Shown here piece by piece: positions 1 to 52,435 of a stretch of DNA of 64,000 nucleotides. Location of the stretch: NCBI GenBank assembly GCA_963734535.1, contig CAVTHS010000014.1:275654-339653 (forward strand). The letters run 5' to 3'. Within the stretch, counting starts at the first letter, position 1. Each line of letters opens with the position of its first letter. Below the pieces are notes generated by a model that ran no database searches, was not told the origin of the DNA, and saw only the letters and a program-made list of their open reading frames with translations. The translations under genes and the position numbers were made by a program. Source of the stretch: an uncultured Chloroflexia bacterium (GTDB taxonomy: Bacteria > Chloroflexota > Limnocylindria > Limnocylindrales > CSP1-4).

Positions 1-1817
1 ACCATGTTCGAGATGCCCATCGCGAACGCCAGGCCAAGCGCGAGCGGCAGGTTGTTGGTCAGGCCCAGGCCGACCACCGCGAGGCCGTACACGGCGTAGC
101 CGCCGATCACCATCCGGCCCTTCGCGATCCGCGAACCCAGCAGGCCGATCACGAACCCGCCGAGCAGGTTGCCGACGCCGATCGCCGTCTCGATGAAGGC
201 GTAGGCGGCGGTCCAGTCGAGCGACCCGAGTCGCAGGACCACCTTCGCGTAGAGCGGCGTGAGCGCGATCGTCGCGCCGACCGTCAGCTGCCCCGCGACC
301 GCCTGCAGCGTGTTGGCGAAGAGGACGGGCTCGCGACGAAGGAATCGCCAGCCGGCGGACAGGTCGGCGCGGATCCCGGCCAGCCCGGGGACGGGGTCGG
401 CCGACCCAGCCGAGCGGACCACCGGCGGGATCACCACCACCATCACCAGGAGGGCCGACGCGACATACGACACGGAGTCGAGCCAGAACGCCAGCGGCAG
501 CGCGCTCCCGAGGAACGCCACGAACAGCCCCGCGAAGGGATAGCCGATGACGTCGGCCAGGGTCTCGTTGAGCCATGTCGCGGCGTTCGCCGACACGAGC
601 TCATCCTCGTGCACGACCCTCGGCAGGACGGCCGTCCGGGCCGGCCGGAAGAAGATCGAGACGGTCGTCAGGAGGAAGACCAGCGGGTAGGCCAGCACGA
701 CGCTCACGCCGACGCCCGCGGGAATGAGCACGACGATCCCCGCGCGAATGAGGTCGCTCGCGATCAGGACGTGCTTCTGGTTCCAGCGGTCGACCAGGAC
801 GCCCGCGAGCGGTCCGAAGAGGAGGTTCGGCAGCGTCGCCGCAACGAACGTCAGGGCGCCCGCGATCGCCGAGTTCGTGGTCCCGTAGACAAGCGCCGCC
901 AGCGCCACCTGGTGGATCCGGTCGCCGAAGAGGCTGATCACCTGCCCCGTCTGCAGCGCGGAGAAGGATCCGTTGACTGCGAGCCGAACGTACGGGTGAT
1001 GGCGCGCCCGGATCGCGACCGTCCGGAGGACGCCGGGCAGGAGCGGTGCCGTGACGCCGCCCGACGACATCGGCGCCGGTGTTGCCAGCCCCGCGCCCGA
1101 GCCGCCCAGGATCATCGGCCGCTCCAGCGCAGCGATGCCAACCAGGCTCGCCGCGAGGCCGGTCCCTGCGCGCACGCCGCCCGTCTGCTCGGAGCCGGGC
1201 GATCCGGCCAGGACCACCGGCTGGCTCGGGTCGGCGCTTCGGAGCGTGCGGCCGTCCGACCCGACCTCGTCCGCGTGACGCACCATGCCCGCGAACAGGA
1301 AGAACCCGAGTCCGACGTCGAGGATCACGTCGCCGATCGAGAGAACATTGCGCAGGAACGGCAGCGGAACCGGGATCACGTCGCCCAGCGGGCCCGCCGA
1401 CCACATGAAGGCGGCGTCCAGGCTCGCCGGCAGGATCACGTGGATGGGCGAGAGGACGTCCGCCCGGCCGAACCCGGCCGCGACGAGGCTCGGTTCCCAG
1501 ATTGGCATGAAGCCGCCGTTCACCAGGATCGCCGTGGCGTTGAGCCCGATCCCGACGAGCGCCAGGCTCATGCCCGGCCTCGCCCGGTTCGCCCACAGCC
1601 CGATGGCAAGGACGCCATAGGCGGCGGCAAGAAGCGGAACCCGCAGCGTCTCGGCGATGGCGACGTCCCGGCCCAGCGCCGCCTCGGTACCCAGGCGAAG
1701 GGCGAGCGCGCCGAAGATCACGAGCGGCCAGCGGAGGCGGATCGAGATGAGGTTGTCGATGCGGCCGCCGACCGCGAACCCCGCGACCAGCCCGATGATC
1801 AGCCCCGCGATCAGCAC
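1..1817 (-). CDS. DUF5317-like membrane domain fused to an MFS transporter (3' end beyond window edge)
   Basis: Manual translation from GTG at 1817: MLIAGLIIGLVAGFAVGGRIDNLISIRLRW...LNATAILVNGGFMP...LGDVIPVP...SIGDVI, a linker, then MFS motifs GQVISLFGDRIHQVAL and GPLAGVLVDRWNQK. The frame at position 3 matches the start frame. Start overlaps the HD-GYP stop (GTGCTGA). Confidence 0.8.
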   Translation of the reverse strand, partial: MLIAGLIIGLVAGFAVGGRIDNLISIRLRWPLVIFGALALRLGTEAALGRDVAIAETLRVPLLAAAYGVLAIGLWANRARPGMSLALVGIGLNATAILVNGGFMPIWEPSLVAAGFGRADVLSPIHVILPASLDAAFMWSAGPLGDVIPVPLPFLRNVLSIGDVILDVGLGFFLFAGMVRHADEVGSDGRTLRSADPSQPVVLAGSPGSEQTGGVRAGTGLAASLVGIAALERPMILGGSGAGLATPAPMSSGGVTAPLLPGVLRTVAIRARHHPYVRLAVNGSFSALQTGQVISLFGDRIHQVALAALVYGTTNSAIAGALTFVAATLPNLLFGPLAGVLVDRWNQKHVLIASDLIRAGIVVLIPAGVGVSVVLAYPLVFLLTTVSIFFRPARTAVLPRVVHEDELVSANAATWLNETLADVIGYPFAGLFVAFLGSALPLAFWLDSVSYVASALLVMVVVIPPVVRSAGSADPVPGLAGIRADLSAGWRFLRREPVLFANTLQAVAGQLTVGATIALTPLYAKVVLRLGSLDWTAAYAFIETAIGVGNLLGGFVIGLLGSRIAKGRMVIGGYAVYGLAVVGLGLTNNLPLALGLAFAMGISNM

Positions 1818-3232
1818 GGCTGGGCGGGGGTCAGGAAGCGTCCGTGGGTGGGCCGCCCGGCGCAGCCGGCGGAATCATCCGCGCCGCGGCCTGGGCGAGG
1901 AGCGGGACAGGTCGCGACTCGGTCGGGCGCCCGGGCGTCTGCCACGTCCTTGGCCCACGACGTGCGCACGAACGCGTCGACCATCACCGGATCGAACTGG
2001 ACGCCCGCGTACTTGCGCAGCTCCGCGAGTGCCTGCTCGCGCGACAACGGCCGCATCCGATACGGGCGCGCCGACGTCATCGCCTCGAACGCGTCGGCCA
2101 CGTGGAGCACGCGCGCCAGCTTGGGGATCTCGTCGCCCATGAGCCGATCCGGGTACCCGGAGCCGTTGTACCACTCGTGGTGGTGCCGGATGATCGGCAG
2201 CTCCGGGGCCAGCTTCCCGACGTGGGCAATGATGTTGGCCCCGATCACCGGGTGCCGGTTCATGAGCGCCCGCTCGTCCCGCGTCAGCTTGTCCTGCTTG
2301 AGCAGCACGCTGTCCGGCACCCCGATCTTGCCGATGTCGTGCAGCAGCCCGCCCCACTCGAGGGCCTGGATCTCGTCGTCCTTCAACCGCATCACGTGCC
2401 CCATGTCCACCGAGATCAGCTGCACGCGCTCGCTGTGACCGGACGTGAAGGTATCCCTCGCATCGACTGCCTGCGCGAGTGCCCCGATGGTCTGCGTGAA
2501 CATCTCCTGCACTTCGACGACTTGACGAAGTGCGACTCGCATGATGTAGATGGGCAGGACGCGAAGAAGAGAGTTGCCCACCATCCGACCTCGAGAGGCG
2601 ATAGATCTGCGTCATCAGCCAAGCCAGGGGAGCGAGTGCAACCCTGTCGCGAAGAACGTCGGTCGATCCCCGAGCAAGACCGTTCTGGTCGATTGCTGCG
2701 TTCGAAGGGCGACCGTTATTGATGTGAAGCTCACGTTGAGCGCAAAGAACACAGACGCAGCCCGGCGAGCGTCGATACGAAGTCGCCGGCCGGAGCGGTT
2801 GATCCCGACGCCCGAGTTCCGTCAGGACGATCTGACGCCCGAACGTCCCGCTGCGATCGCAGGAACAACAAGTCCCGCGTGGTTGGCAAGGGTTCCGTAC
2901 CACGGGACCCGACCCGAGTCTCCCGATACTCCTTGTCCCGATGGCGCGACGATCGCAGCCTGCGGCCTGGTCCTCCCAGACTCATCGCGGCGACGATTGG
3001 CGCGATCGACGTGTTGATGAGCGTAGCCCCGCGCCATCGGACTGGCAGAGCCGAGGCTAGGAGGGTCAGCCCCGTCCAGAAGACGATCCCGGCGAGGACG
3101 TCGATTGTCTCGGAGCCAAACAGGTCCAGCCGAATCTGCTATCTGACAGGAATCACGACGACTCGTGACGACTAGCACAAGGTGCGCCGACCGTCACGAG
3201 CTCGCAATGTAGATGCTGAGGCTCTTAGGCAT
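1811..3232 (-). CDS. HD-GYP cyclic-dinucleotide phosphodiesterase with N-terminal multi-TM sensor region (5' part frameshifted)
   Basis: ORF 1811-2584 has LLHDIGK and HHEWYNGSGYP. Upstream hydrophobic fragments lie in shifting frames back to ATG 3232 (MPKSLSIYIA), preceded by GAAGGGA. Confidence 0.8.
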
Positions 3233-3310
3233 CCGATCCCTTCAGGCGACCGTCGGCTGTCCTTGGACTGTAGACGTACCCGGACGAGCCGGAAGGTGAG
3301 ACAGAAGTAC

Positions 3311-3400
3311 CTAGAACCCCTTCAGTGATGCTCCCCCAGCAATAACGGCCGCGCCGATAGGCCGACGGTACCGCGAGGAGGGCGCAGTCCGAGTCTTCAT
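3311..3400 (-). CDS. 29-aa putative signalling peptide precursor MKTRTAPSSRYRRPIGAAVIAGGASLKGF
   Basis: Manual translation ATG..TAG. Basic N-terminus, hydrophobic/Gly-Ala C-half, aromatic C-terminus. The middle may be distorted by compensating indels. Confidence 0.65.
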   Translation of the reverse strand: MKTRTAPSSRYRRPIGAAVIAGGASLKGF

Positions 3401-3430
3401 CACTGGAGACCTAGCTCCCGTCCCCTGCCG

Positions 3431-3463
3431 TCAGAAGCCCTTGGAACCGAACTCGGGACCCAT
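3431..3463 (-). CDS. 10-aa micro-ORF MGPEFGSKGF
   Basis: ATG..TGA with GGAGG (3471-3475) 7 nt upstream; same KGF C-terminus as the adjacent peptide. Confidence 0.55.
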   Translation of the reverse strand: MGPEFGSKGF

Positions 3464-3614
3464 CGTGTGCCCTCCAATGGGTTTCCGTGCCCCCGCGAAA
3501 TCACGAAAACCGACCTAACAGATTGGTCGGTCGGTTGCACTAGTCGCTCCACCTCCCCCCTAAGTGCCCATTTCGGGAGGAGGTATCAGCGCGTCCGCTT
3601 GTTCACTTTGCTTC

Positions 3615-3632: not shown

Positions 3633-3691
3633 TCGGCGAACCGGACTTTAGGCTGCTGCGCGAGCAACGGTCAATACCGAACCCTCCCTAT

Positions 3692-6600
3692 CTAGCCCAA
3701 GAGATCCTCAAGGTGAGGCGGATCAAGGCCGAGGTCCCGCTGACCCAGTGAGTAGTGTCCGTACTGTTCGGCCGCGGCAGCGTAGGCGCCGACCAAGGTA
3801 TAGAGCCGTATCACGGTCTTCTCGACCTCGTCGAGTTGCGGGTCAATCTCAATGGCCCGCTGAGCGAGGCGCATCGCACGATCGATCTGACCAGTGTCTG
3901 CATCGTGCGTCGACCGCGCGCTCCACGATCTCGAGGTATCTCGCGTGCATCGATGCTCTCGGATCGGGGCCGCCCATTCTTCGTAGGTGAAGTCGAGGGC
4001 GAATCGTCCCGAGTAGATCTGTGACACGCGATCGGCCTGGGCCGGGGTCGCGAGAGCGCCGATCGACGCTGCAATACGTCGATACTCATGGCTTCTGCTC
4101 GTAACTAGGTCGGAGTCTAGCCACAGCACATCGGGGTCGTGATGCAGATACCCGGGGCTCAAGTCCTCCGACGTAGTCGGGCTCGAATACGCGACGGAGG
4201 AAGTAGACGGTCTGGTGCAGTGAGTTGGCGGCCTGCTCCGGATCCTGATCCGGCCACAGCGCGTCAAGTACCTGGTCCCGCGTTGCCGACATCTTTGGCT
4301 GAGCTAACAGGAAGCAAAGGAGCGCAAGAGCCTTCCGGCGGATCGTCGTCCCCGGTATCTCCATCGAACCAACCCAGATAACCAATCCGGCCGAGATCGT
4401 CGACATAGACCAAGTCGGCAACTCGACGGGCGAGCGACTTACCGAAGTCTGGATGACGGAGTTGTCCCTTGGACTCCTTCGAAGCCAGCCGGAGTAGGCG
4501 AACGTCCTCTTTGGTCCCGATTACCTCCAGGAGGCGGGCGGCTTGCCATCGCTCTCGGCCTCCTGGAGCTGCAACGAGAATGCGAATTGGCGATTCGCCA
4601 GCGACGCGGGCGTGACTCAGCCTCTGCAGCGGACGACGTCGATCGCAGCGTCGGACAGGTCGGCGATCCTCCGGAGCACTGCCTCTGCCCGAACGCTCAA
4701 GAGCGCGCGATCGCGGAGCCCGATGGCGCTGACGATCGCCGACGCTTCGTCCGGCGTGGCAGATAGTCCACGCAACAGCGATGCGTCGATAAGGCGACCC
4801 AGCGCGCTGCTTGCCGCCGGGCTAACGTTTCGAGCGCTAGTCGAGACGCGGGATCAACCGTTCCGAATGCGAGAACTCGCGAATTCAGTGCGCCAGCAGA
4901 CGCTGGACGTGGAAGGCGGGGTATCCCGTCAGGACTCCGCAGGCATTCGGCGGATATGTGAGCCCGCGTCGCCTCGCCCACCTCACCAGGTCTTCCAGCC
5001 GCGAGAGCTGTCTCCGGTGAGAAGCTGGAAGCACTCCAGGGAGGCATCTGGAGCACCCAGAAGGTCGGCCTCCGCAGCAGTCTGAGAGGCGCGCGTCCGG
5101 ATCGTCGTAGGCTCCAATGATCTCGGCGCCCTCGACGAGGCTCTCAAATCGCGTCCCGGCTCTCGCTGCCTCGAGCGAGTGTCACGTCCAGCTTCGCCTC
5201 CGCCTCGACCCAATCGCCGTCGTGGGCAAGGGCCCAAGCCTACAGTGTCTGCACCGACGATATTTCCGTTCCCGCGGAGGAGCGGCTAAGCGCATCCACG
5301 GCGCCAGCCGCCCGCGTCGCGGGTTGCGTGCACGTCGCCTCGAGCACGCAACATCCACGCGGCATTCAAGAGCGAGATGCCTTGGTAGTGCCAGTAGCCC
5401 CGCCGCTCGAATCGGGTTGCGAGGTCCGCGATAGGCATGGATCGACACCGCCGAGGTCTCCGTCGACGGGAATGATTCGAGCCAAGTCATGGCATCCGCG
5501 AGGGTGGCGATCGCTCGCCGGTTCTTCCGACAGAGATCGCGCCGCCCAGCGAACGGCGCGTTCGTAGGTCGCCTACCCCATAAGACGCGTTCATCATTGA
5601 CCCCATCGCGATAGCAACGGTCATGCGACCGGTCGCTTCCTCCGACGACACGATCGATGGCACCTGCGGCAGCCGCGGCTGCTCCGGCCGGATCACCGGC
5701 ACGGAGTCGTCCTGATGCCACTATCACGTCGTGCCAGGCGCCGAGGGTGGCGGGGTCGAGATGGGAGGCGAGCTGCTCGGCGTCCTTGTAGGCGCCGGAG
5801 CCGAGGATGACGGGGACTGCCGCCGAGAGGACTCGGACGGCGTCGTCGGCCAGGTCGGCGGCGGCGAAGTGGTACGCCGCGACCGACCACGAGGCAGGCT
5901 CCGCGGCGCGCGCGATGCGGGCGTGGATCTGGCGGACCGCGATCGCCCCGACGGCGTCGTGCAGCCGGCCCTCCAGGAACGTCCGGACGAGCGGGTGGAA
6001 GAGGCGTCCGGCCTGCCCGGTTCGGCCGCGTCGCGACAGGAGACCCGCACCCTCGGCGGCGTCGAGGAAGCCGCGAGCGGCCTCCGGGGTGACCTCGGCG
6101 GCCGCGGACGCGAGCTCCGGCGTGACGACGGCCAGCAGGCAGCTCCGCTCGACGAAATCCTGGGCGGCACGTGGCATGCGCCCGACGACCTCCTCGGCAA
6201 GGTAGTCGTGCAGGTCGCCCTGCCGACCGGACAGGCCGCGGATGACGGTCCGAACCTCGTCGCGCGGCCGCCCGCGGACCACGGACTCGACGAGCCGCAG
6301 CGTGGCCGCCCATCCCTCGGTGGTGCGGGCGAGGTCGTCGAGGAGGTCGCGCTCGAGCGGGTCGTGGTAGGTGTCCCGGAAGAGGCGCTCCGTCTCGTCG
6401 CGGTCGAATCGCAGGTCGTCGGTGCCGATCTCGGCCGCTTCGCCGATTGCGCGGAGGCGGGCGAGGGGGAGCGTTGGCCGCGTCCGCGAGGCGATGACGA
6501 CCGCCAGCCGGTCGGGACCGCGGACCACGAGCTCACGGACGATCTCGCGGATCTCCGGGACGTCGTCCACCTGCTGGTAGTCGTCGAGGACCAGCGCCGT

Positions 6601-7179
6601 GCCGACCACCGCCCAGGCACGAAGCTCCGCCAGGAGTGTCCTGACGATCGCGCTCCGGTTGTCGAGGGTCGCCGCGAGCTCGCGCAGGAGGCCTGCCGTG
6701 TTCGGGGCGAACTCCGGATCGATCTCGCGACCGGCGGCGACGATGTGATGGATGAACACGGCCCAGTCGCGGTCGTGCTCGTCCAGGCGATACCAGAGCG
6801 TGCGCACGCGGGTACGCCGGCTCCAGTCCGCGAGGAGCGTGGTCTTCCCATAGCCCGGCTCGGCGATGACGAGGGCGAGCCGGGACCGCGTCTTCGCGTG
6901 CAGCCAGTCGATCAGCCGGTCGCGCCGGAGCGTCTCCTCCGGGAGCATGGGCGGCTGGATCTTGCCGATCTGGACCGGATAGCCGAAGACTTCCACGTCG
7001 TCCTGCTGGGCAGCGCTCGGAGTCCGATGCGAGACGGGACCCGGCCCAACCGGGACGAGGCGTGTCGGGACCGTCTGCGGATCACGGGCGAGCGGGTGTG
7101 CCGACCACCGACCGCCCACCTGGGCGTGGGCGGGGGTCAGGGAAGCCGGGCCGGGAGCCGGGGAAGCCATCGCGGCCAT
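3692..7179 (-). CDS. MalT-like STAND ATPase transcriptional regulator with TPR-like middle and C-terminal wHTH/BTAD; 3' half fragmented by frameshifts
   Basis: KIQPPMLP..RDRL, Walker A AEPGYGKTT, LVLDDYQ, TEGWAATLRL, DYLAEEV in 5182-7179. KALALLCFLL..TRDQVLDALWP..NSLHQTVYFLRR in 4086-4421. YSGRFALDFTYEEW..AIEIDPQLDE in 3692-4267. Confidence 0.8.
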
Positions 7180-7602: not shown

Positions 7603-8961
7603 TTACGGGGCCGCGCCCGCGTAGCGCTCGCCGGCATAGCTGACGAAGCGCGTCTGGCTCTTCTTGAACCAGAGGTCAACCTCGCCGGTGGGGCCGTTGC
7701 GGTGCTTGGCAAGCCGGAGCTTGACGACCTCGCCGTCCGCATCCTGGTCCTCGCCCCGCTCCTTCTCGCGCCACAGGAACACGACCAGGTCTGCGTCCTG
7801 CTCGATTGCGCCCGACTCGCGGAGGTCGGAGAGCCGGGGCTCCTTCGACTCGCGCATCTCGGGCTGGCGCGACAGCTGCGAGAGCGCGACGACGGGAACG
7901 CGAAGCTCGCGGGCGAGCGCCTTCAACCCGCGGCTGATCTCCGAGACTTCCTGGACGCGGTTCGAATCGCGCGCGGTGGATGACGCCTGCATGAGCTGGA
8001 GGTAGTCCACGATCACGAGGTCGAGGCCGACCTCCGCCTGCAGCCGCCGGGCCTTCGTGCGCAGCTCCATGGTGCTGATGTTCGGCGTGTCGTCGATGTA
8101 GATCGGCGCTTCGGACAGGCCGGTCATGGCCTTGGAGACGCCCACGAAGTCCATCTCGTCGAGGAAGCCCGTGCGCAGACGCTGGCTGTCGATGTTCCCG
8201 ACCGAGCTGAGAAGCCGGAGAACGAGCTGCTCCTTGCTCATCTCCAGGCTGAAGATCCCCACGCTCTTGCGGGGCGTGTTGCTGATCGCGGCGAACTCCG
8301 CGATGTTCAGGGCGAGGCTGGTCTTGCCCACGGATGGGCGAGCGGCGATCACGACGAGGTCCGACGGCTGCAGGCCGGTGGTGAGCGTGTCGAGGTCCGC
8401 GAAGCCCGTCCGGATGCCGCTGATCTCGCCGCGGTGGGTGTGCAGGTAGTCGAGCCGGTCGAACGCCTCGTGGAGGAGCGTCCGGAGCGGGCTGAACCCG
8501 GCGGCAACGCGGCGCTCCGAGACGGCGAAGAGCTCCGACTCGGCGCGGTCGATCGCTTCCTGGACTTCCGGCCCGTCCTCGTAGCCGATCCCGGCGATCT
8601 TTCCGGCCGCCGCGATCAGGTTTCGCAGCACGGACTTGCGTTCGACGATCCGGGCGTACTGGGCGGCGAAGACGGCGGTGGGGGTCTGCTCGGAGAGCGA
8701 CGAGAGGTACGCACGGCCGCCGATCTGCTCGAGGTCCCCGGCTCGCTCGAGCGCCTCGGCGACCGTGATGATGTCGATCGGCTCACGGCGCTCCCAGAGC
8801 TCCACCATCGACGCGTAGATGCGGCCGTGGGCCTGGCGGTAGAAATCGTCCGGGTGGACGATGTCGGCGACCTCGATGATCGCGTCGCGATCGATGAGGA
8901 GCGCTCCGAGGACGGACTGCTCGGCTTCGATGCTCTGGGGTGGAAGGCGGTCGAGGGACAC
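7603..8961 (-). CDS. dnaB: replicative DNA helicase
   Basis: PPQSIEAEQSVLG, AARPSVGKT, VDYLQLM, SQLSR, DLRESGAIEQDAD, AKHRNGPTG; no intein. Confidence 0.98.
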   Translation of the reverse strand: MSLDRLPPQSIEAEQSVLGALLIDRDAIIEVADIVHPDDFYRQAHGRIYASMVELWERREPIDIITVAEALERAGDLEQIGGRAYLSSLSEQTPTAVFAAQYARIVERKSVLRNLIAAAGKIAGIGYEDGPEVQEAIDRAESELFAVSERRVAAGFSPLRTLLHEAFDRLDYLHTHRGEISGIRTGFADLDTLTTGLQPSDLVVIAARPSVGKTSLALNIAEFAAISNTPRKSVGIFSLEMSKEQLVLRLLSSVGNIDSQRLRTGFLDEMDFVGVSKAMTGLSEAPIYIDDTPNISTMELRTKARRLQAEVGLDLVIVDYLQLMQASSTARDSNRVQEVSEISRGLKALARELRVPVVALSQLSRQPEMRESKEPRLSDLRESGAIEQDADLVVFLWREKERGEDQDADGEVVKLRLAKHRNGPTGEVDLWFKKSQTRFVSYAGERYAGAAP

Positions 8962-9200: not shown

Positions 9201-9851
9201 TCAGTCGAGGCGGCGGATCACCCCGATGAGCTTGCCCTGGATTCGGACGGCCTCGTAGTACTGCGGCGGATATGCGGGATTCGCAGGCTGGAGCCGGACG
9301 CGGCCGTCCTCCTTGAAGAACCGCTTGAGCGTGACCGCGTTCTCCTCGACCTGGGCGACGACGATGTCCCCGTTCCGGGCCGTCTGCTGGGGACGGATCA
9401 CGACGTAGTCCCCGTCCGCGATCAGCGCCTCGATCATCGAATCCCCGCGGACCCGAAGCAGGTAGGCGTCCCCGGAAGGGGCGAGCATCTCGGGCACCGC
9501 CTGGTAGTCGCCGACCACCTGGTAGGCCTCGATAGGACCGCCCGCGGCGATCTCGCCGATCACCGGCAGCATGTGCGCCTCACGGGCAGCGGACTGGGGA
9601 GTCAGCTCCGTGGAGAGCCCGAGCGCGATGGCCGCCTTCGGCGTGAAGCGAAGCATCCGGCTCTGGGCAGCACCGCGCTCCAGGTACCCGTCCTCCTCGA
9701 GCGCCTTGAGGTGGTGATGGACGGCCGAGGTGGACGCAAGGCCGACGGCGCGCGCGATCTCGCGGACAGATGGGGGAACGCCAGTCGACCGGATCATCGC
9801 GGCAATGTAGTCGAGGATCTTCCGCTTCCGTTCCGCGTCGTGCTTGGTCAC
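9201..9851 (-). CDS. lexA: SOS repressor LexA
   Basis: PPSVREIA HTH, IAAG cleavage site, GDSM Ser and TLKR Lys dyad. Confidence 0.97.
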   Translation of the reverse strand: MTKHDAERKRKILDYIAAMIRSTGVPPSVREIARAVGLASTSAVHHHLKALEEDGYLERGAAQSRMLRFTPKAAIALGLSTELTPQSAAREAHMLPVIGEIAAGGPIEAYQVVGDYQAVPEMLAPSGDAYLLRVRGDSMIEALIADGDYVVIRPQQTARNGDIVVAQVEENAVTLKRFFKEDGRVRLQPANPAYPPQYYEAVRIQGKLIGVIRRLD

Positions 9852-10594: not shown

Positions 10595-11137
10595 ATGGCA
10601 CGGATCGATCGGCGTTCGGCCGGGCGCGTGAGGAGAACGGGGCGGCCGGAGCGTCCGCGACGGGGCGCGATGGTGGGTCGGTCCCTGACGGCGCTCGCCC
10701 TGCTTCCACTCGCCAGCCGCCTGCCGTCCTACGGGCGCCTCACCCTCGACCTCCTCGCCGACGAGCGGGTCTCGGTTGCCCGCAAGGCGATCCTGGCCGG
10801 CGTCATCGTCTACGCGGTCTCGCCGCTGGACCTCATCCCCGACCGCGTCCCGGTCCTGGGCGCGATCGACGACCTGGTCGTCGGGGTGCTCGGCGTCGAG
10901 CTCTTCCTGGCAGGCCTCTCGACCGAGCTGATCGACGAGAAGCTCGACCGCCTGGGGATCCCGCGAGCCGCCTTCGACGAGGACCGCGCCCGGGTCCGGC
11001 GCACCATCCCCCGCCCCGTCCGCCGCATCGTCAACCGTCTCCCCGCCACGATGGAGAGCGCCGGTCGCGTCACCCGCGACCTGGAGCTCGGCCGACACGT
11101 GCGCGGCTGGCTCACCAAGGAGGGTTCCCCCGCGTGA
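10595..11137 (+). CDS. YkvA/DUF1232 family membrane protein
   Basis: YAVSPLDLIPDRVPVLGAIDD motif. Confidence 0.85.
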   Translation: MARIDRRSAGRVRRTGRPERPRRGAMVGRSLTALALLPLASRLPSYGRLTLDLLADERVSVARKAILAGVIVYAVSPLDLIPDRVPVLGAIDDLVVGVLGVELFLAGLSTELIDEKLDRLGIPRAAFDEDRARVRRTIPRPVRRIVNRLPATMESAGRVTRDLELGRHVRGWLTKEGSPA

Positions 11138-11580
11138 AGGTCATCCTGACCACCGACGTCGCCAAGCTCGGAAAGAGCGGCGAGCTCAAGGACGTGGCCG
11201 AGGGCTACGCTCGCAACTACCTGATCAAGTCCAACCTGGCGGTCCCGGCCGCCGGCGGCGCCTACCGCGCGTGGCAGCACGACATCGCGAGCCGCGAGGA
11301 CAAGCGGAAGCGCGAGCGCGAGGAGGCCGAGATCGCGGCGAACCGGATCGGCTCGACGACGCTCACCATGGGCGTCAAGGTCGGCGAGGGCGGCAAGCTG
11401 TACGGCTCGATCACGACCCAGGACATCGCCGACGCGCTCGGCCGCCGCGGGATCGTCGTGGACAAGCACAAGGTTGACCTGGACCAGCCGCTCAAGTCGC
11501 TGGGCACCTACAAGGTCGCGATCAAGGTTCACGCCGGGATGACGCCCGAGGTCACGGTCATCGTCGAGCCCAAGGGCTGA
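11134..11580 (+). CDS. rplI: 50S ribosomal protein L9
   Basis: GTG start, KVILTTDVAKLGKSGELKDVAEGYARNYL, GKLYGSIT. Confidence 0.97.
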   Translation: MKVILTTDVAKLGKSGELKDVAEGYARNYLIKSNLAVPAAGGAYRAWQHDIASREDKRKREREEAEIAANRIGSTTLTMGVKVGEGGKLYGSITTQDIADALGRRGIVVDKHKVDLDQPLKSLGTYKVAIKVHAGMTPEVTVIVEPKG

Positions 11581-52361: not shown

Positions 52362-52435
52362 GCCCCCATCGTCTAGAGGCCTAGGACGCCACCCTTTCAA
52401 GGTGGAGATCAGGGGTTCGAATCCCCTTGGGGGTA
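52362..52435 (+). tRNA. tRNA-Glu (TTC), CCA not encoded
   Basis: Acceptor GCCCCCA/TGGGGGT, anticodon arm CCACC-CTTTCAA-GGTGG, T-loop GGTTCGAATCC; upstream TGCTAGACT extended -10. Confidence 0.96.

Follow-up and report, generated by a model that had tools for sequence, protein, structure and literature searches.

Organisation of the locus

The window analysed here is a stretch of 64,000 nucleotides from an uncultured Chloroflexia bacterium. At its left edge lies a gene encoding a DUF5317 domain fused to an MFS transporter (positions 1..1817, residues 1-605 of 682); this gene and all features of the window described below are on the minus strand. The ORF starts with a GTG at position 1817 and its frame is still open past position 1. 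The remaining 77 codons and the stop extend 231 nt beyond its left edge, to position -231, and the full ORF in the genome encodes 682 aa (G000:C14:275422-277470). The fusion gene is the last gene of its operon, where it follows, in order, a c-di-GMP-II riboswitch, a 10-aa ORF, a 29-30-aa precursor and a MASE9-HD-GYP gene. The preliminary description of this locus covered the fusion gene, but missed the candidate substrate gene, sensor and riboswitch just upstream.

A sigma-70-like promoter match (TTGACC-18-TAAAGT, 3645..3674) is located just upstream of the aptamer; it is a pattern match only, the sole one in 5 kb (shuffle mean 0.3). The c-di-GMP-II aptamer (RF01786, 3520..3605) reaches 61.4 bits (cut-off 53.5) and covers the full model (1-84). 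The predicted fold of the leader (z -1.9) is too weak to tell an on switch from an off switch. The same riboswitch class occurs in two sets of fused-type loci (9/9 and 6/20), and a different class, c-di-GMP-I-GGC, lies directly before the precursor in all six stand-alone loci from Limnocylindria. Next comes a leaderless 10-aa ORF, MGPEFGSKGF (3431..3463), which has a ribosome-binding site and a tail matching that of the precursor. It is present in 28/32 loci of the f1 type and 17/17 loci of family f4, and in 0/48 others. As a general explanation of the MFS this ORF was rejected, since none of 19 loci from families f3 and f5 has it, yet all have the MFS.

The precursor gene (3311..3403) encodes a peptide that begins with basic residues, continues as a hydrophobic helix and ends in IAGGASLKGF before the stop; its middle codons are out of frame in this assembly, owing to two compensating indels relative to related sequences. 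The gene between precursor and fusion (1811..3232) encodes a predicted MASE9-like membrane sensor with an HD-GYP phosphodiesterase domain. It is 457-480 aa long in relatives, two of which have recognisable MASE9 domains (E 2.6e-10 and 8.5e-4), and is recovered here by tblastn as fragments in three frames. Over positions 2477-3476 the short-read contigs contain 36 gaps, and the frameshift in the HD-GYP gene is likely to reflect assembly indels. Upstream of the operon is an AAA+/TPR/winged-helix/BTAD regulator (3695..7179), 1155 aa in a relative and frameshifted here, which is found at this place in 21/22 f1, 17/20 f4 and 0/17 f3/f5 loci. Contigs from RNA run X20 cover the precursor and riboswitch region and almost none of the fused gene; this run shares 5% of words, and is therefore silent on the level or absence of expression.

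The DUF5317-MFS fusion

Pfam places DUF5317 at residues 26-174 (E 2e-22) and MFS_3 at residues 284-676 (E 2.5e-25) of the 682-aa protein. They are joined by a linker (residues about 181-270, 1008..1277), predicted to be cytoplasmic, which varies in both length (about 15 to >100 aa) and sequence, with no column conserved in at least 95% of 65 fused proteins. The GC3 of the linker (0.91) is close to that of the two flanking domains (0.92 and 0.94), and the linker is therefore genuine coding DNA.

The fusion could in principle have arisen from a lost stop codon or an assembly error. Adjacent genes of the same assembly do carry indel errors, and genuine two-gene forms are known in families f3 and f5. 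However, fused ORFs of 660-718 aa were found in 15/15 related loci, 119 of the 120 long DUF5317 homologues among the matches listed have MFS Pfam domains, and a short-read contig (run X1, possibly the source sample) spans positions 1-1424, including the junction, with no gaps. The chance of an artefact is thus negligible: the DUF5317-MFS fusion is real and conserved. The in-frame passage from DUF5317 through a flexible linker into an MFS permease, as first described, is borne out, and the proposed comparison with related genomes rules out a lost stop.

The DUF5317 domain and its aspartate pair

The DUF5317 domain (residues 1-180, 1278..1817) is a candidate aspartic peptidase. It has five hydrophobic helices and an outer loop of four strands that connects helix 83-99 with helix 161-179, and its AF2 model has a pLDDT of 96 and a pTM of 0.89. 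A literature search for DUF5317 and PF17248 found no paper, in line with the earlier remark that the function of this domain is not established. The asparagine motif and the two Gly-Asp motifs noted at the outset are present as described (N93...N100GGFMP, LGD146VIP and SIGD163VI).

Both aspartates, whose conservation had been put forward as a check, are invariant. D146 (1380..1382), at the start of beta-hairpin strand 146-152, and S160, G162 and D163 (S160-I-G162-D163, 1329..1340), in the first turn of the last helix, are identical in 199/199 DUF5317 domains, a set restricted to rows covering at least 150 profile positions; in 66/66 more distant domains, too, D146 and D163 never vary. The pair G89-x3-N93 (1539..1553) is kept in 197/199 and 66/66 domains. 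In the model, D146 and D163 sit at opposite ends of one hairpin, before the last helix. The loops 18-31 and 76-83, rich in Lys and Arg, and the C-terminus are assigned to the inside, and the acidic loop 100-160 to the outside, by hydropathy and positive-inside counts. These assignments, together with the requirement of the MFS for a cytoplasmic N-terminus, place the predicted D146/D163 dyad on the outer face of the membrane.

Resemblance to signal peptidase II

The preliminary description held that the spacing of the aspartates recalls that of signal peptidase II (LspA). This comparison stands as far as the sequence register is concerned: D146 falls on the VVDF and D163 on the FNxAD motif of LspA, 13-20 residues apart in DUF5317 and 14-26 in 26 LspA proteins of Chloroflexota. 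Fourteen residues are conserved in LspA, including Gly102/Asn106 (PMC6952399), the spacing of which is that of G89-x3-N93. By our own mapping, eight of these 14 (PMC6952399) have the same or a similar DUF5317 residue in register (G89, N93, L144, D146, F/Y159, S160, G162 and D163). For Asp21/Lys25, Asn52/Gly54 and Asp109-Arg110 of LspA there is no in-register counterpart among the conserved DUF5317 columns.

The structural comparison suggested at the time gave a mixed outcome. With the whole 183-aa model, LspA was absent from the match lists (Foldseek best E 2.5); in the wide VIA search with the whole domain the best Z (8.6) belonged to a coiled coil and LspA was not in the top 50, nor was it among the 77 chains of a second whole-domain comparison. 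Against 48,161 chains, of which the best 50 rows were considered, a model of the C-terminal 127 residues (57-183) ranked 6RYP 9th (Z 5.8, rmsd 2.8, 86 aligned residues, chain 61-156) and 5DIR 33rd (Z 5.1, rmsd 2.7, 81 aligned, 21% identity). The identity to 5DIR was the highest among the best 50 of these chains, and the two LspA structures gave the longest alignments among the 14 of these 50 rows with an rmsd of at most 3.0. This fragment superposes on the catalytic half of LspA, H2-H4 plus the hairpin, with a Z that is not decisive: it is below 8 and level with unrelated helical bundles, and eight chains rank above 6RYP. Foldseek found no match with the same fragment.

Profile searches gave a similar picture. 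The LspA profile reached at least 8 bits in 10/199 DUF5317 domains, as against 0/199 reversed, 0/199 shuffled and 0/222 MFS controls, and its best match spanned the FNxAD part in 85/199 domains compared to 1 and 9 in controls. The hhalign probability for DUF5317 against LspA was 7%, with a misregistered match of 16 columns as the best for the whole domain, and the DUF5317 profile had no match among PDB sequences at E 10. PF01252 matched 1/49 DUF5317 members below cut-off (E 0.087), and neither it nor the NCBIfam LspA models matched the protein of the window. NCBIfam LspA models matched 10, 4 and 2 of 130 members weakly (best E 0.0077, below cut-off), and models of Na+/H+ antiporter subunit E matched more members (23 and 11 of 130). 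Three weak PF01252 matches in other Chloroflexota, suspected to be DUF5317, proved not to be so. The genome also encodes a separate true LspA (G000:C10:85177-85590).

DUF5317 and LspA (PF01252, peptidase A8; 5DIR, 6RYP) would thus share an Asp dyad at the outer face, at both hairpin ends and before the last helix (as predicted in DUF5317), and a G-x3-N pair in the helix preceding the hairpin; the superposition of H2-H4 and hairpin, at 2.7-2.8 A over 81-86 residues, is a partial match. In the candidate substrate of DUF5317 a basic N-terminus is likewise followed by a hydrophobic helix and an L-A-G motif. They differ in the N-terminal half, which in DUF5317 consists of three helices rather than H1 and the cradle strands, in the last loop, which in DUF5317 contains additional strands, and in the motifs: DUF5317 has SxGD rather than NxAD, and lacks DQxxK, NxG and DR. 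In addition, the LspA substrate carries diacylglyceryl-Cys at +1, where the candidate DUF5317 substrate has Gly. DUF5317 does not fit the GxGD intramembrane proteases, as S160-x-G-D rather than G-x-G-D is found in 199/199 domains and SPPL2a reaches only Z 3.0 at an rmsd of 5.4. Kinship with LspA is therefore suggestive rather than proven. Judging from sequence and model, DUF5317 is likely to be a distant LspA relative, or an LspA-derived aspartic peptidase, its activity being a prediction.

The precursor family

The precursor accompanies DUF5317 across Chloroflexota. It is present at 102/149 DUF5317 places and at 35/41 loci outside Limnocylindria, for 106/133 precursor matches a listed DUF5317 is found no more than 4 kb away, and both genes are absent in 6/6 genomes of family f2. 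These counts are partly circular, since the profile was started from peptides encoded next to DUF5317 (40/55 from Limnocylindria). Complete precursor genes are also found away from any DUF5317 or sensor. The 55 aligned precursors share a motif at the end of the helix, L/I/M (53/55)-small-x-G (48/55)-A (53/55), which resembles a lipobox without its Cys (LAG-GA): none of the 55 contains Cys, and the lipobox Cys position is Gly in 48/55. The +1 position is occupied by G, S, P, N or D.

Within a family the tail beyond this motif is short and nearly constant (SL[KR]GF), as might be expected equally of a species signal and of a fixed membrane partner. The precursor might never be cut, being instead a single-helix membrane micro-protein in complex with DUF5317 and the MASE9 sensor, with the Asp pair binding its basic tail or a ligand and the MFS as a loosely attached member. 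Its parts are fused in several combinations, as is seen for subunits (DUF5317-MFS; HD-GYP-MFS in family f19; DUF5317-EAL in Euzebya), and C. difficile has small membrane proteins under c-di-GMP riboswitch control, as described in the accessible part of the report (10.64898/2026.06.10.731418). We nevertheless regard an uncut precursor as unlikely, as the invariant Asp pair in LspA register with its upstream G-x3-N, the superposition on LspA and the lipobox-like motif at the helix end are what is expected of an enzyme and its cleavage site, and many tails outside Limnocylindria lack a basic residue.

It is also conceivable that DUF5317 acts on the precursor other than as a plain hydrolase, cyclising, transferring or lipid-modifying the tail in the manner of AgrB, or that it acts on a lipid, with the MFS exporting the modified product. 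Such chemistry could explain the further invariant residues unlike LspA (N77 and N100GGxMP), the strand-helix-strand segment inserted in the AF2 model and the weak overall fold similarity. The tails, however, have no conserved Cys, Ser or Thr nucleophile, and no conserved Cys-His pair was found in DUF5317, where H126 occurs in only 29/66 distant domains; we consider this quite improbable.

The MFS transporter

The transporter part (1..1007, cut by the window edge) belongs to the DHA3/MFS_3 group, with 89.4 bits for MFS_3 (cut-off 27) and 62 bits for MFS_1 (cut-off 33.4). It shares with exporters of this group (Mef(A), EntS, Tap and the ryptide export MFS) 12 helices, the helix-1 Asp (D299) and motif A (G339...D343); D299, G339 and D343 are conserved in at least 95% of 65 fused proteins, as are 42 MFS columns in all. 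It differs from the named families in carrying the N-terminal DUF5317 and in falling below the cut-off of each of them, including that of its best NCBIfam match (TIGR00900, E 6e-61); the ryptide export MFS model matches weakly (E 3e-6). The analysis of this MFS gave no pointer to drug resistance.

The MFS is an accessory, lineage-specific addition, because it is absent near DUF5317 in 46/51 other loci, fused DUF5317-MFS genes fall in two separate clades, and in family f19 the MFS is fused to the HD-GYP sensor rather than to DUF5317. In families f3 and f5 it is a separate gene in 13/25 loci. Outside Chloroflexota, gene contexts were covered for one Euzebya plasmid, and DUF5317 scored above cut-off in Thermus thermophilus and Thermotoga maritima (the control line of the profile search). 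A structure search of the Atlas returned DUF5317 clusters only, one of them a 580-aa DUF5317-MFS cluster of 103 members; its commonest label is Actinomycetota, unverified and based on the 19 members of known phylum. Atlas feature searches leaving out PF17248 gave no usable match.

The fusion was at first taken for an MFS analogue of peptidase-containing ABC transporters, in which a leader would be cut and the product then exported by the fused MFS. In keeping with this idea, the fusion is conserved and has arisen in each of two clades, the exporter group includes the weakly matching ryptide export MFS, and the MFS directly follows DUF5317 in 84/84 HD-GYP-type loci examined (f1 and f4 loci chosen for long frames). 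As both Asp are predicted to be outside, however, the order cannot be cutting inside followed by export, and a product cut at the outer face needs no exporter; nor do the 46 DUF5317 loci without an MFS fit. On the predicted topology the analogy does not hold, and we give it only a slim chance.

A proposed peptide signalling pathway

The occurrence of a probably LspA-related domain in an operon with a riboswitch, a signal-peptide-like gene and a sensor suggests that DUF5317-MFS cuts the precursor to make the signal of the sensor. DUF5317 would cleave the signal-peptide-like precursor of 29 residues at what is predicted to be the outer face of the membrane, most probably at L-A-G / G-A, with Gly in the lipobox Cys position, or alternatively after the near-invariant Ala. 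The freed tail of 5-7 residues would be the likely signal for the adjoining MASE9-HD-GYP c-di-GMP phosphodiesterase, sensed by MASE9, with feedback through the c-di-GMP riboswitch. We consider the chances even that DUF5317 works as a peptidase at the outer face and produces a peptide signal for a c-di-GMP enzyme. The MFS may serve as an accessory exporter bringing the precursor to the outer face, so that export would come first and cutting second, and in f1 and f4 it could also carry the 10-aa sibling there; taken by itself, this role is put forward tentatively and with some doubt.

In its broadest form, the proposal is that DUF5317 constitutes a second LspA-clan branch, in which signal peptides are cleaved independently of Cys, and that it lies at the core of an undescribed, phylum-spanning peptide signalling system. 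The receptors of this system would be c-di-GMP enzymes (MASE9-HD-GYP and membrane GGDEF-EAL proteins) and its precursor gene would be under c-di-GMP riboswitches of two unrelated classes. In Limnocylindria the MFS would have been joined on twice, supplying the peptidase with its substrate and, in one lineage, exporting a leaderless signal mimic of 10 residues. We rate this version as somewhat short of an even prospect. If the peptidase reading is true, LspA has a sister family whose substrates are not lipidated, and one route of peptide signalling leads to c-di-GMP. The value of the MFS fusion lies chiefly in the evidence it gives that the pathway includes transport. Cultured hosts of DUF5317 are available in Thermus thermophilus and Thermotoga maritima.

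Comparison with known systems

In peptidase-containing ABC transporters a C39 peptidase with a cytoplasmic active-site Cys is joined to an ABC exporter. The present system shares with them a candidate peptidase ahead of an exporter and a short precursor gene alongside. It differs in having an MFS rather than an ABC transporter, an Asp dyad rather than a Cys and a site predicted to be outside, and its transporter is not always present and may be joined to the sensor instead. A Pfam search found no C39 or ABC domain in the fusion protein.

Small membrane-associated proteins directly behind c-di-GMP riboswitches are also seen in the CD1980.2 family of C. difficile, which according to the accessible part of the report has 58 aa, a class I riboswitch and, per its authors, no homologues outside C. 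difficile; that part mentions no peptidase or sensor partner (10.64898/2026.06.10.731418). The upstream gene of the operon is of the same type as the MASE9-HD-GYP phosphodiesterases TM1467 of T. maritima and HdgA of S. venezuelae. From the portions of the papers available, no ligand of MASE9 is known and binding is proposed to take place inside the membrane (10.1101/2021.11.05.467447), and an hdgA mutant of S. venezuelae had no developmental phenotype, the authors suspecting a missing activating signal (PMC6205966); these portions mention no peptide or DUF5317 partner (10.1101/2021.11.05.467447; PMC6205966). Related membrane sensors on c-di-GMP enzymes are likewise not known to have a ligand. 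The cassette described here offers a candidate ligand of 5-7 residues for MASE9-type sensors, its putative maker and two residues to mutate, which makes the question of the MASE9 ligand directly testable.

The staphylococcal agr system (AgrD, AgrB and AgrC) and the enterococcal pheromones derived from signal peptides combine a short membrane-targeted precursor, a membrane processing enzyme, a membrane sensor and feedback. The locus described here appears to cluster the same parts, a precursor, a processing enzyme, a membrane sensor and a feedback element, if the roles assigned above are correct. Its proteins, however, are unrelated, it has no ring-forming Cys and its feedback would run through a c-di-GMP riboswitch. 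The output is mostly an HD-GYP or GGDEF-EAL protein rather than a kinase or RRNPP regulator, with a kinase motif at two DUF5317 loci.

The fused gene and its operon

The DUF5317-MFS gene runs on the minus strand from window position 1817 to 231 nt beyond the window's left edge and encodes a 682-aa protein, in which Pfam places DUF5317 (PF17248) at residues 26-174 and MFS_3 at residues 284-676. It is the single DUF5317 gene found by a search of the source genome, and its nearest named relatives belong to Candidatus Limnocylindrales (Chloroflexota). The fusion is genuine, and an artefact extremely improbable, since a fused ORF of 660-718 aa occurs in 15/15 relatives (53-95% identity), MFS domains are present in 119 among the 120 matches listed of 255 long homologues, and a single gap-free short-read contig extends over window 1-1424. 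DUF5317 was found in 123/151 genomes of the class (Limnocylindria) and 78/251 of the phylum, while the full-length query matched 107 of the 151 class genomes at E <= 1e-40, many alignments covering the MFS half only. Three unpublished genomes (G087, G106, G123) are counted in these class tallies and in that of the precursor, and none is the sole basis of a claim.

Upstream on the same strand lie a MASE9-HD-GYP gene (1811-3232), a signal-peptide-like precursor gene of 29-30 aa (3311-3403), a 10-aa ORF (3431-3463), a c-di-GMP-II riboswitch (3520-3605), a promoter-like match (3645-3674) and, furthest upstream, a large BTAD regulator. The HD-GYP, precursor and regulator genes are frameshifted in this assembly, broken by many single-base indels relative to relatives and short-read contigs in 2477-3476 and about 3700-5630; the adjacent fused gene is clean. 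Single-base differences at 3144, 3159, 3181 and 3236 are common to contigs of all four short-read runs, and one short-read contig has 36 gaps over 2477-3476 (the aligned rows compared lying outside the precursor itself), so assembly error is the likely cause. Elsewhere, the window holds a tRNA gene (52362-52435, plus strand; Rfam) and ordinary genes which we take to encode DnaB helicase (7603-8961), LexA (9201-9851) and ribosomal protein L9 (about 11130-11580).

The MFS as an accessory component

The MFS is an accessory component. It directly follows DUF5317 in 84/84 HD-GYP-type loci (68 scored as fused, three of these cut or odd in length; 13 true two-gene, all from families f3/f5; 3 apparent frameshifts), and is mostly absent from other DUF5317 loci (present in 5/51). 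Loci of families f1 and f4 were selected for long frames, whereas those of f3/f5, mostly unselected, divide into 12 fused and 13 separate. Fused genes fall into two clades, f1 with f4 (long linker) and part of f3 (short linker, nested among split forms). A single fused clade was rejected on both the MFS tree (p-AU 1.5e-5; quick tree, 41 rows) and the DUF5317 tree (p-AU 0.013; 54 rows), the fused group having been defined after viewing a first tree; one fusion event followed by several fissions could also have given this pattern.

In f19, a family of another class, the MFS is fused behind HD-GYP at four loci, Pfam-checked in three, and a stand-alone DUF5317 and then an AI-2E transporter follow. 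These membrane fusions, 844-847 aa long (L115:5572-8109, L116:2358-4898, L119:5586-8117, L123:5543-8083), are preceded by a kinase-like/response-regulator-like pair of genes and by a precursor gene.

The Asp pair and the relation to LspA

The preliminary description likened DUF5317 to an intramembrane Asp peptidase of the LspA kind. Both Asp residues are conserved: D146, S160, G162 and D163 are invariant in 199/199 domains, as are G89, N93, M104, P105, D146, G162 and D163 in 66/66 from more distant lineages. The AF2 model (pLDDT 96) has helices at 2-15, 31-49, 59-76, 83-99 and 161-179 and strands at 104-107, 126-129, 146-152 and 155-160, placing D146 and D163 at either end of a single hairpin. 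Loops 18-31 and 76-83 and the C-terminus of DUF5317 are rich in Lys/Arg, loop 100-160 is net acidic, and the N-terminus of an MFS must begin in the cytoplasm; the dyad is therefore predicted on the outer membrane face. An outer-face catalytic dyad is likewise described for LspA (PMC6952399).

Profile-profile alignment sets D146 on VVDF and D163 on FNxAD of LspA, and for the C-terminal halves gave P 0.005 yet a probability of 7% (reversed control, P 0.26-0.54). An LspA profile of 26 sequences reached at least 8 bits for 10/199 DUF5317 domains and for 0 in reversed, shuffled and MFS controls; NCBIfam lspA matched 10/130 members weakly, and antiporter models matched more (23/130). LspA was not among the matches listed by whole-domain fold searches. 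When a model of residues 57-183, a fragment picked with LspA in mind, was compared with 48,161 chains, 6RYP ranked 9 (Z 5.8, rmsd 2.8, 86 aligned) and 5DIR 33 (Z 5.1, rmsd 2.7, 81 aligned, 21% identity), Z-scores in the range of common arrangements; these alignments were the longest among the listed low-rmsd rows and included both catalytic Asp.

Kinship with LspA is suggestive, and a partial LspA fold is predicted, although DUF5317 falls outside family A8. The peptidase reading remains plausible and is somewhat strengthened by the Asp register and the partial 6RYP/5DIR superposition, with the whole-domain searches weighing against it; LspA-like activity is, on balance, probable. A role for DUF5317 as a modifying enzyme is improbable. 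One stand-alone DUF5317 (P0239) bears the JGI name 'lipoprotein signal peptidase' and matches PRK14788 (E 0.019, residues 80-173).

A precursor that travels with DUF5317

The precursor opens with a basic segment and continues with a hydrophobic helix, the motif L-A-x-G-A and a tail, which has five residues in 44/55. Its motif agrees with the lipobox, given as L(VI)-A(STVI)-G(AS)-C in PMC6952399, but has Gly where the lipobox has Cys. An uncut membrane partner is a possible but rather unlikely alternative to a cleaved precursor.

The precursor travels with DUF5317, in counts that are partly circular because the profile seeds were taken from such loci. The profile matches 104/151 class genomes; 106/133 matches have a listed DUF5317 at most 4 kb away (the total leaves out 17 more in genomes with DUF5317 position unlisted), and 102/149 DUF5317 places have a precursor. 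Neither is present in the six genomes of family f2, all of them small. Outside the class it occurs at 35/41 loci (E <= 0.01), one being a Euzebya plasmid, and in the source genome the operon's precursor ranks top of 49,098 ORF ends.

Among 18 distant matches retrieved, several are complete orphan genes: neither DUF5317 nor a sensor motif occurs within 4 kb of them, and no nearby riboswitch passes the cut-off. Others lie at contig ends. The orphan precursors at L199-L208, L211 and L212, whose tails include EAGQRW.. and AAGWKW, lie at a distance from DUF5317 and sensors and are possibly processed in trans. Tandem precursor pairs occur in L081, L082, L085, L095, L100, L127, L217 and L218, with differing tails in most; in L081 and L082 one GGDEF-EAL gene lies between two DUF5317 genes.

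Riboswitches and neighbouring genes

A second, stand-alone DUF5317 of the class lies mostly downstream of a gene for a membrane GGDEF-EAL protein. It is paired with a separate precursor, whose tail is rich in Trp and which a c-di-GMP-I-GGC riboswitch directly precedes in 6/6 loci. At fused-type loci a c-di-GMP-II riboswitch scores above cut-off in 9/9 of one set and 6/20 of another (5/7 f1, 1/6 f4, 0/7 f3/f5). A counterpart of the 10-aa ORF, 8-10 codons long, precedes the precursor in 28/32 f1-type and 17/17 f4 loci, and in 0/19 f3/f5, 0/11 stand-alone and 0/18 other-class loci; it has a ribosome-binding site, a K/R-x-W/F end, and synonymous and stop-codon variation.

On a Euzebya pacifica plasmid (NZ_CP031166.1; L098:5773-8313) DUF5317 is fused N-terminally to an EAL-domain protein; a GGDEF-EAL gene and a precursor gene lacking annotation lie upstream of it. 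At two other-class loci (L133, L136) the adjoining sensor carries a histidine-kinase motif instead of a c-di-GMP domain. In a third stand-alone group, from family f1 (L094, L009, L010, L026-L029), neither a precursor nor a c-di-GMP enzyme occurs in the available flanks; several of its genes come after a 170-190-aa gene, presumably DinB-like.

A possible peptide-signalling cassette

No paper with DUF5317 or PF17248 was found in a literature search to which most subscription journals were closed, and combined-term searches gave nothing relevant. In the model we propose, which builds on parts, a gene order and a conservation that are established, the precursor would insert in the membrane with its tail outward, DUF5317 would cut it at the helix end, the freed tail would act on MASE9 to alter c-di-GMP breakdown, and the riboswitch would close the loop on precursor synthesis. 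As a whole, this model has in our view an even chance of being right. A cut outside requires no later export, so the MFS more likely acts before cleavage or on the 10-aa leaderless sibling. Cleavage followed by export through the MFS is quite improbable, as a product cut at the predicted outer face has no need of it. For the same reason, with the dyad predicted outside, the analogy first drawn with peptidase-containing ABC transporters is unsupported. Under the proposed model, the cassette would be a variant of the peptide-signalling operon made of unrelated parts.
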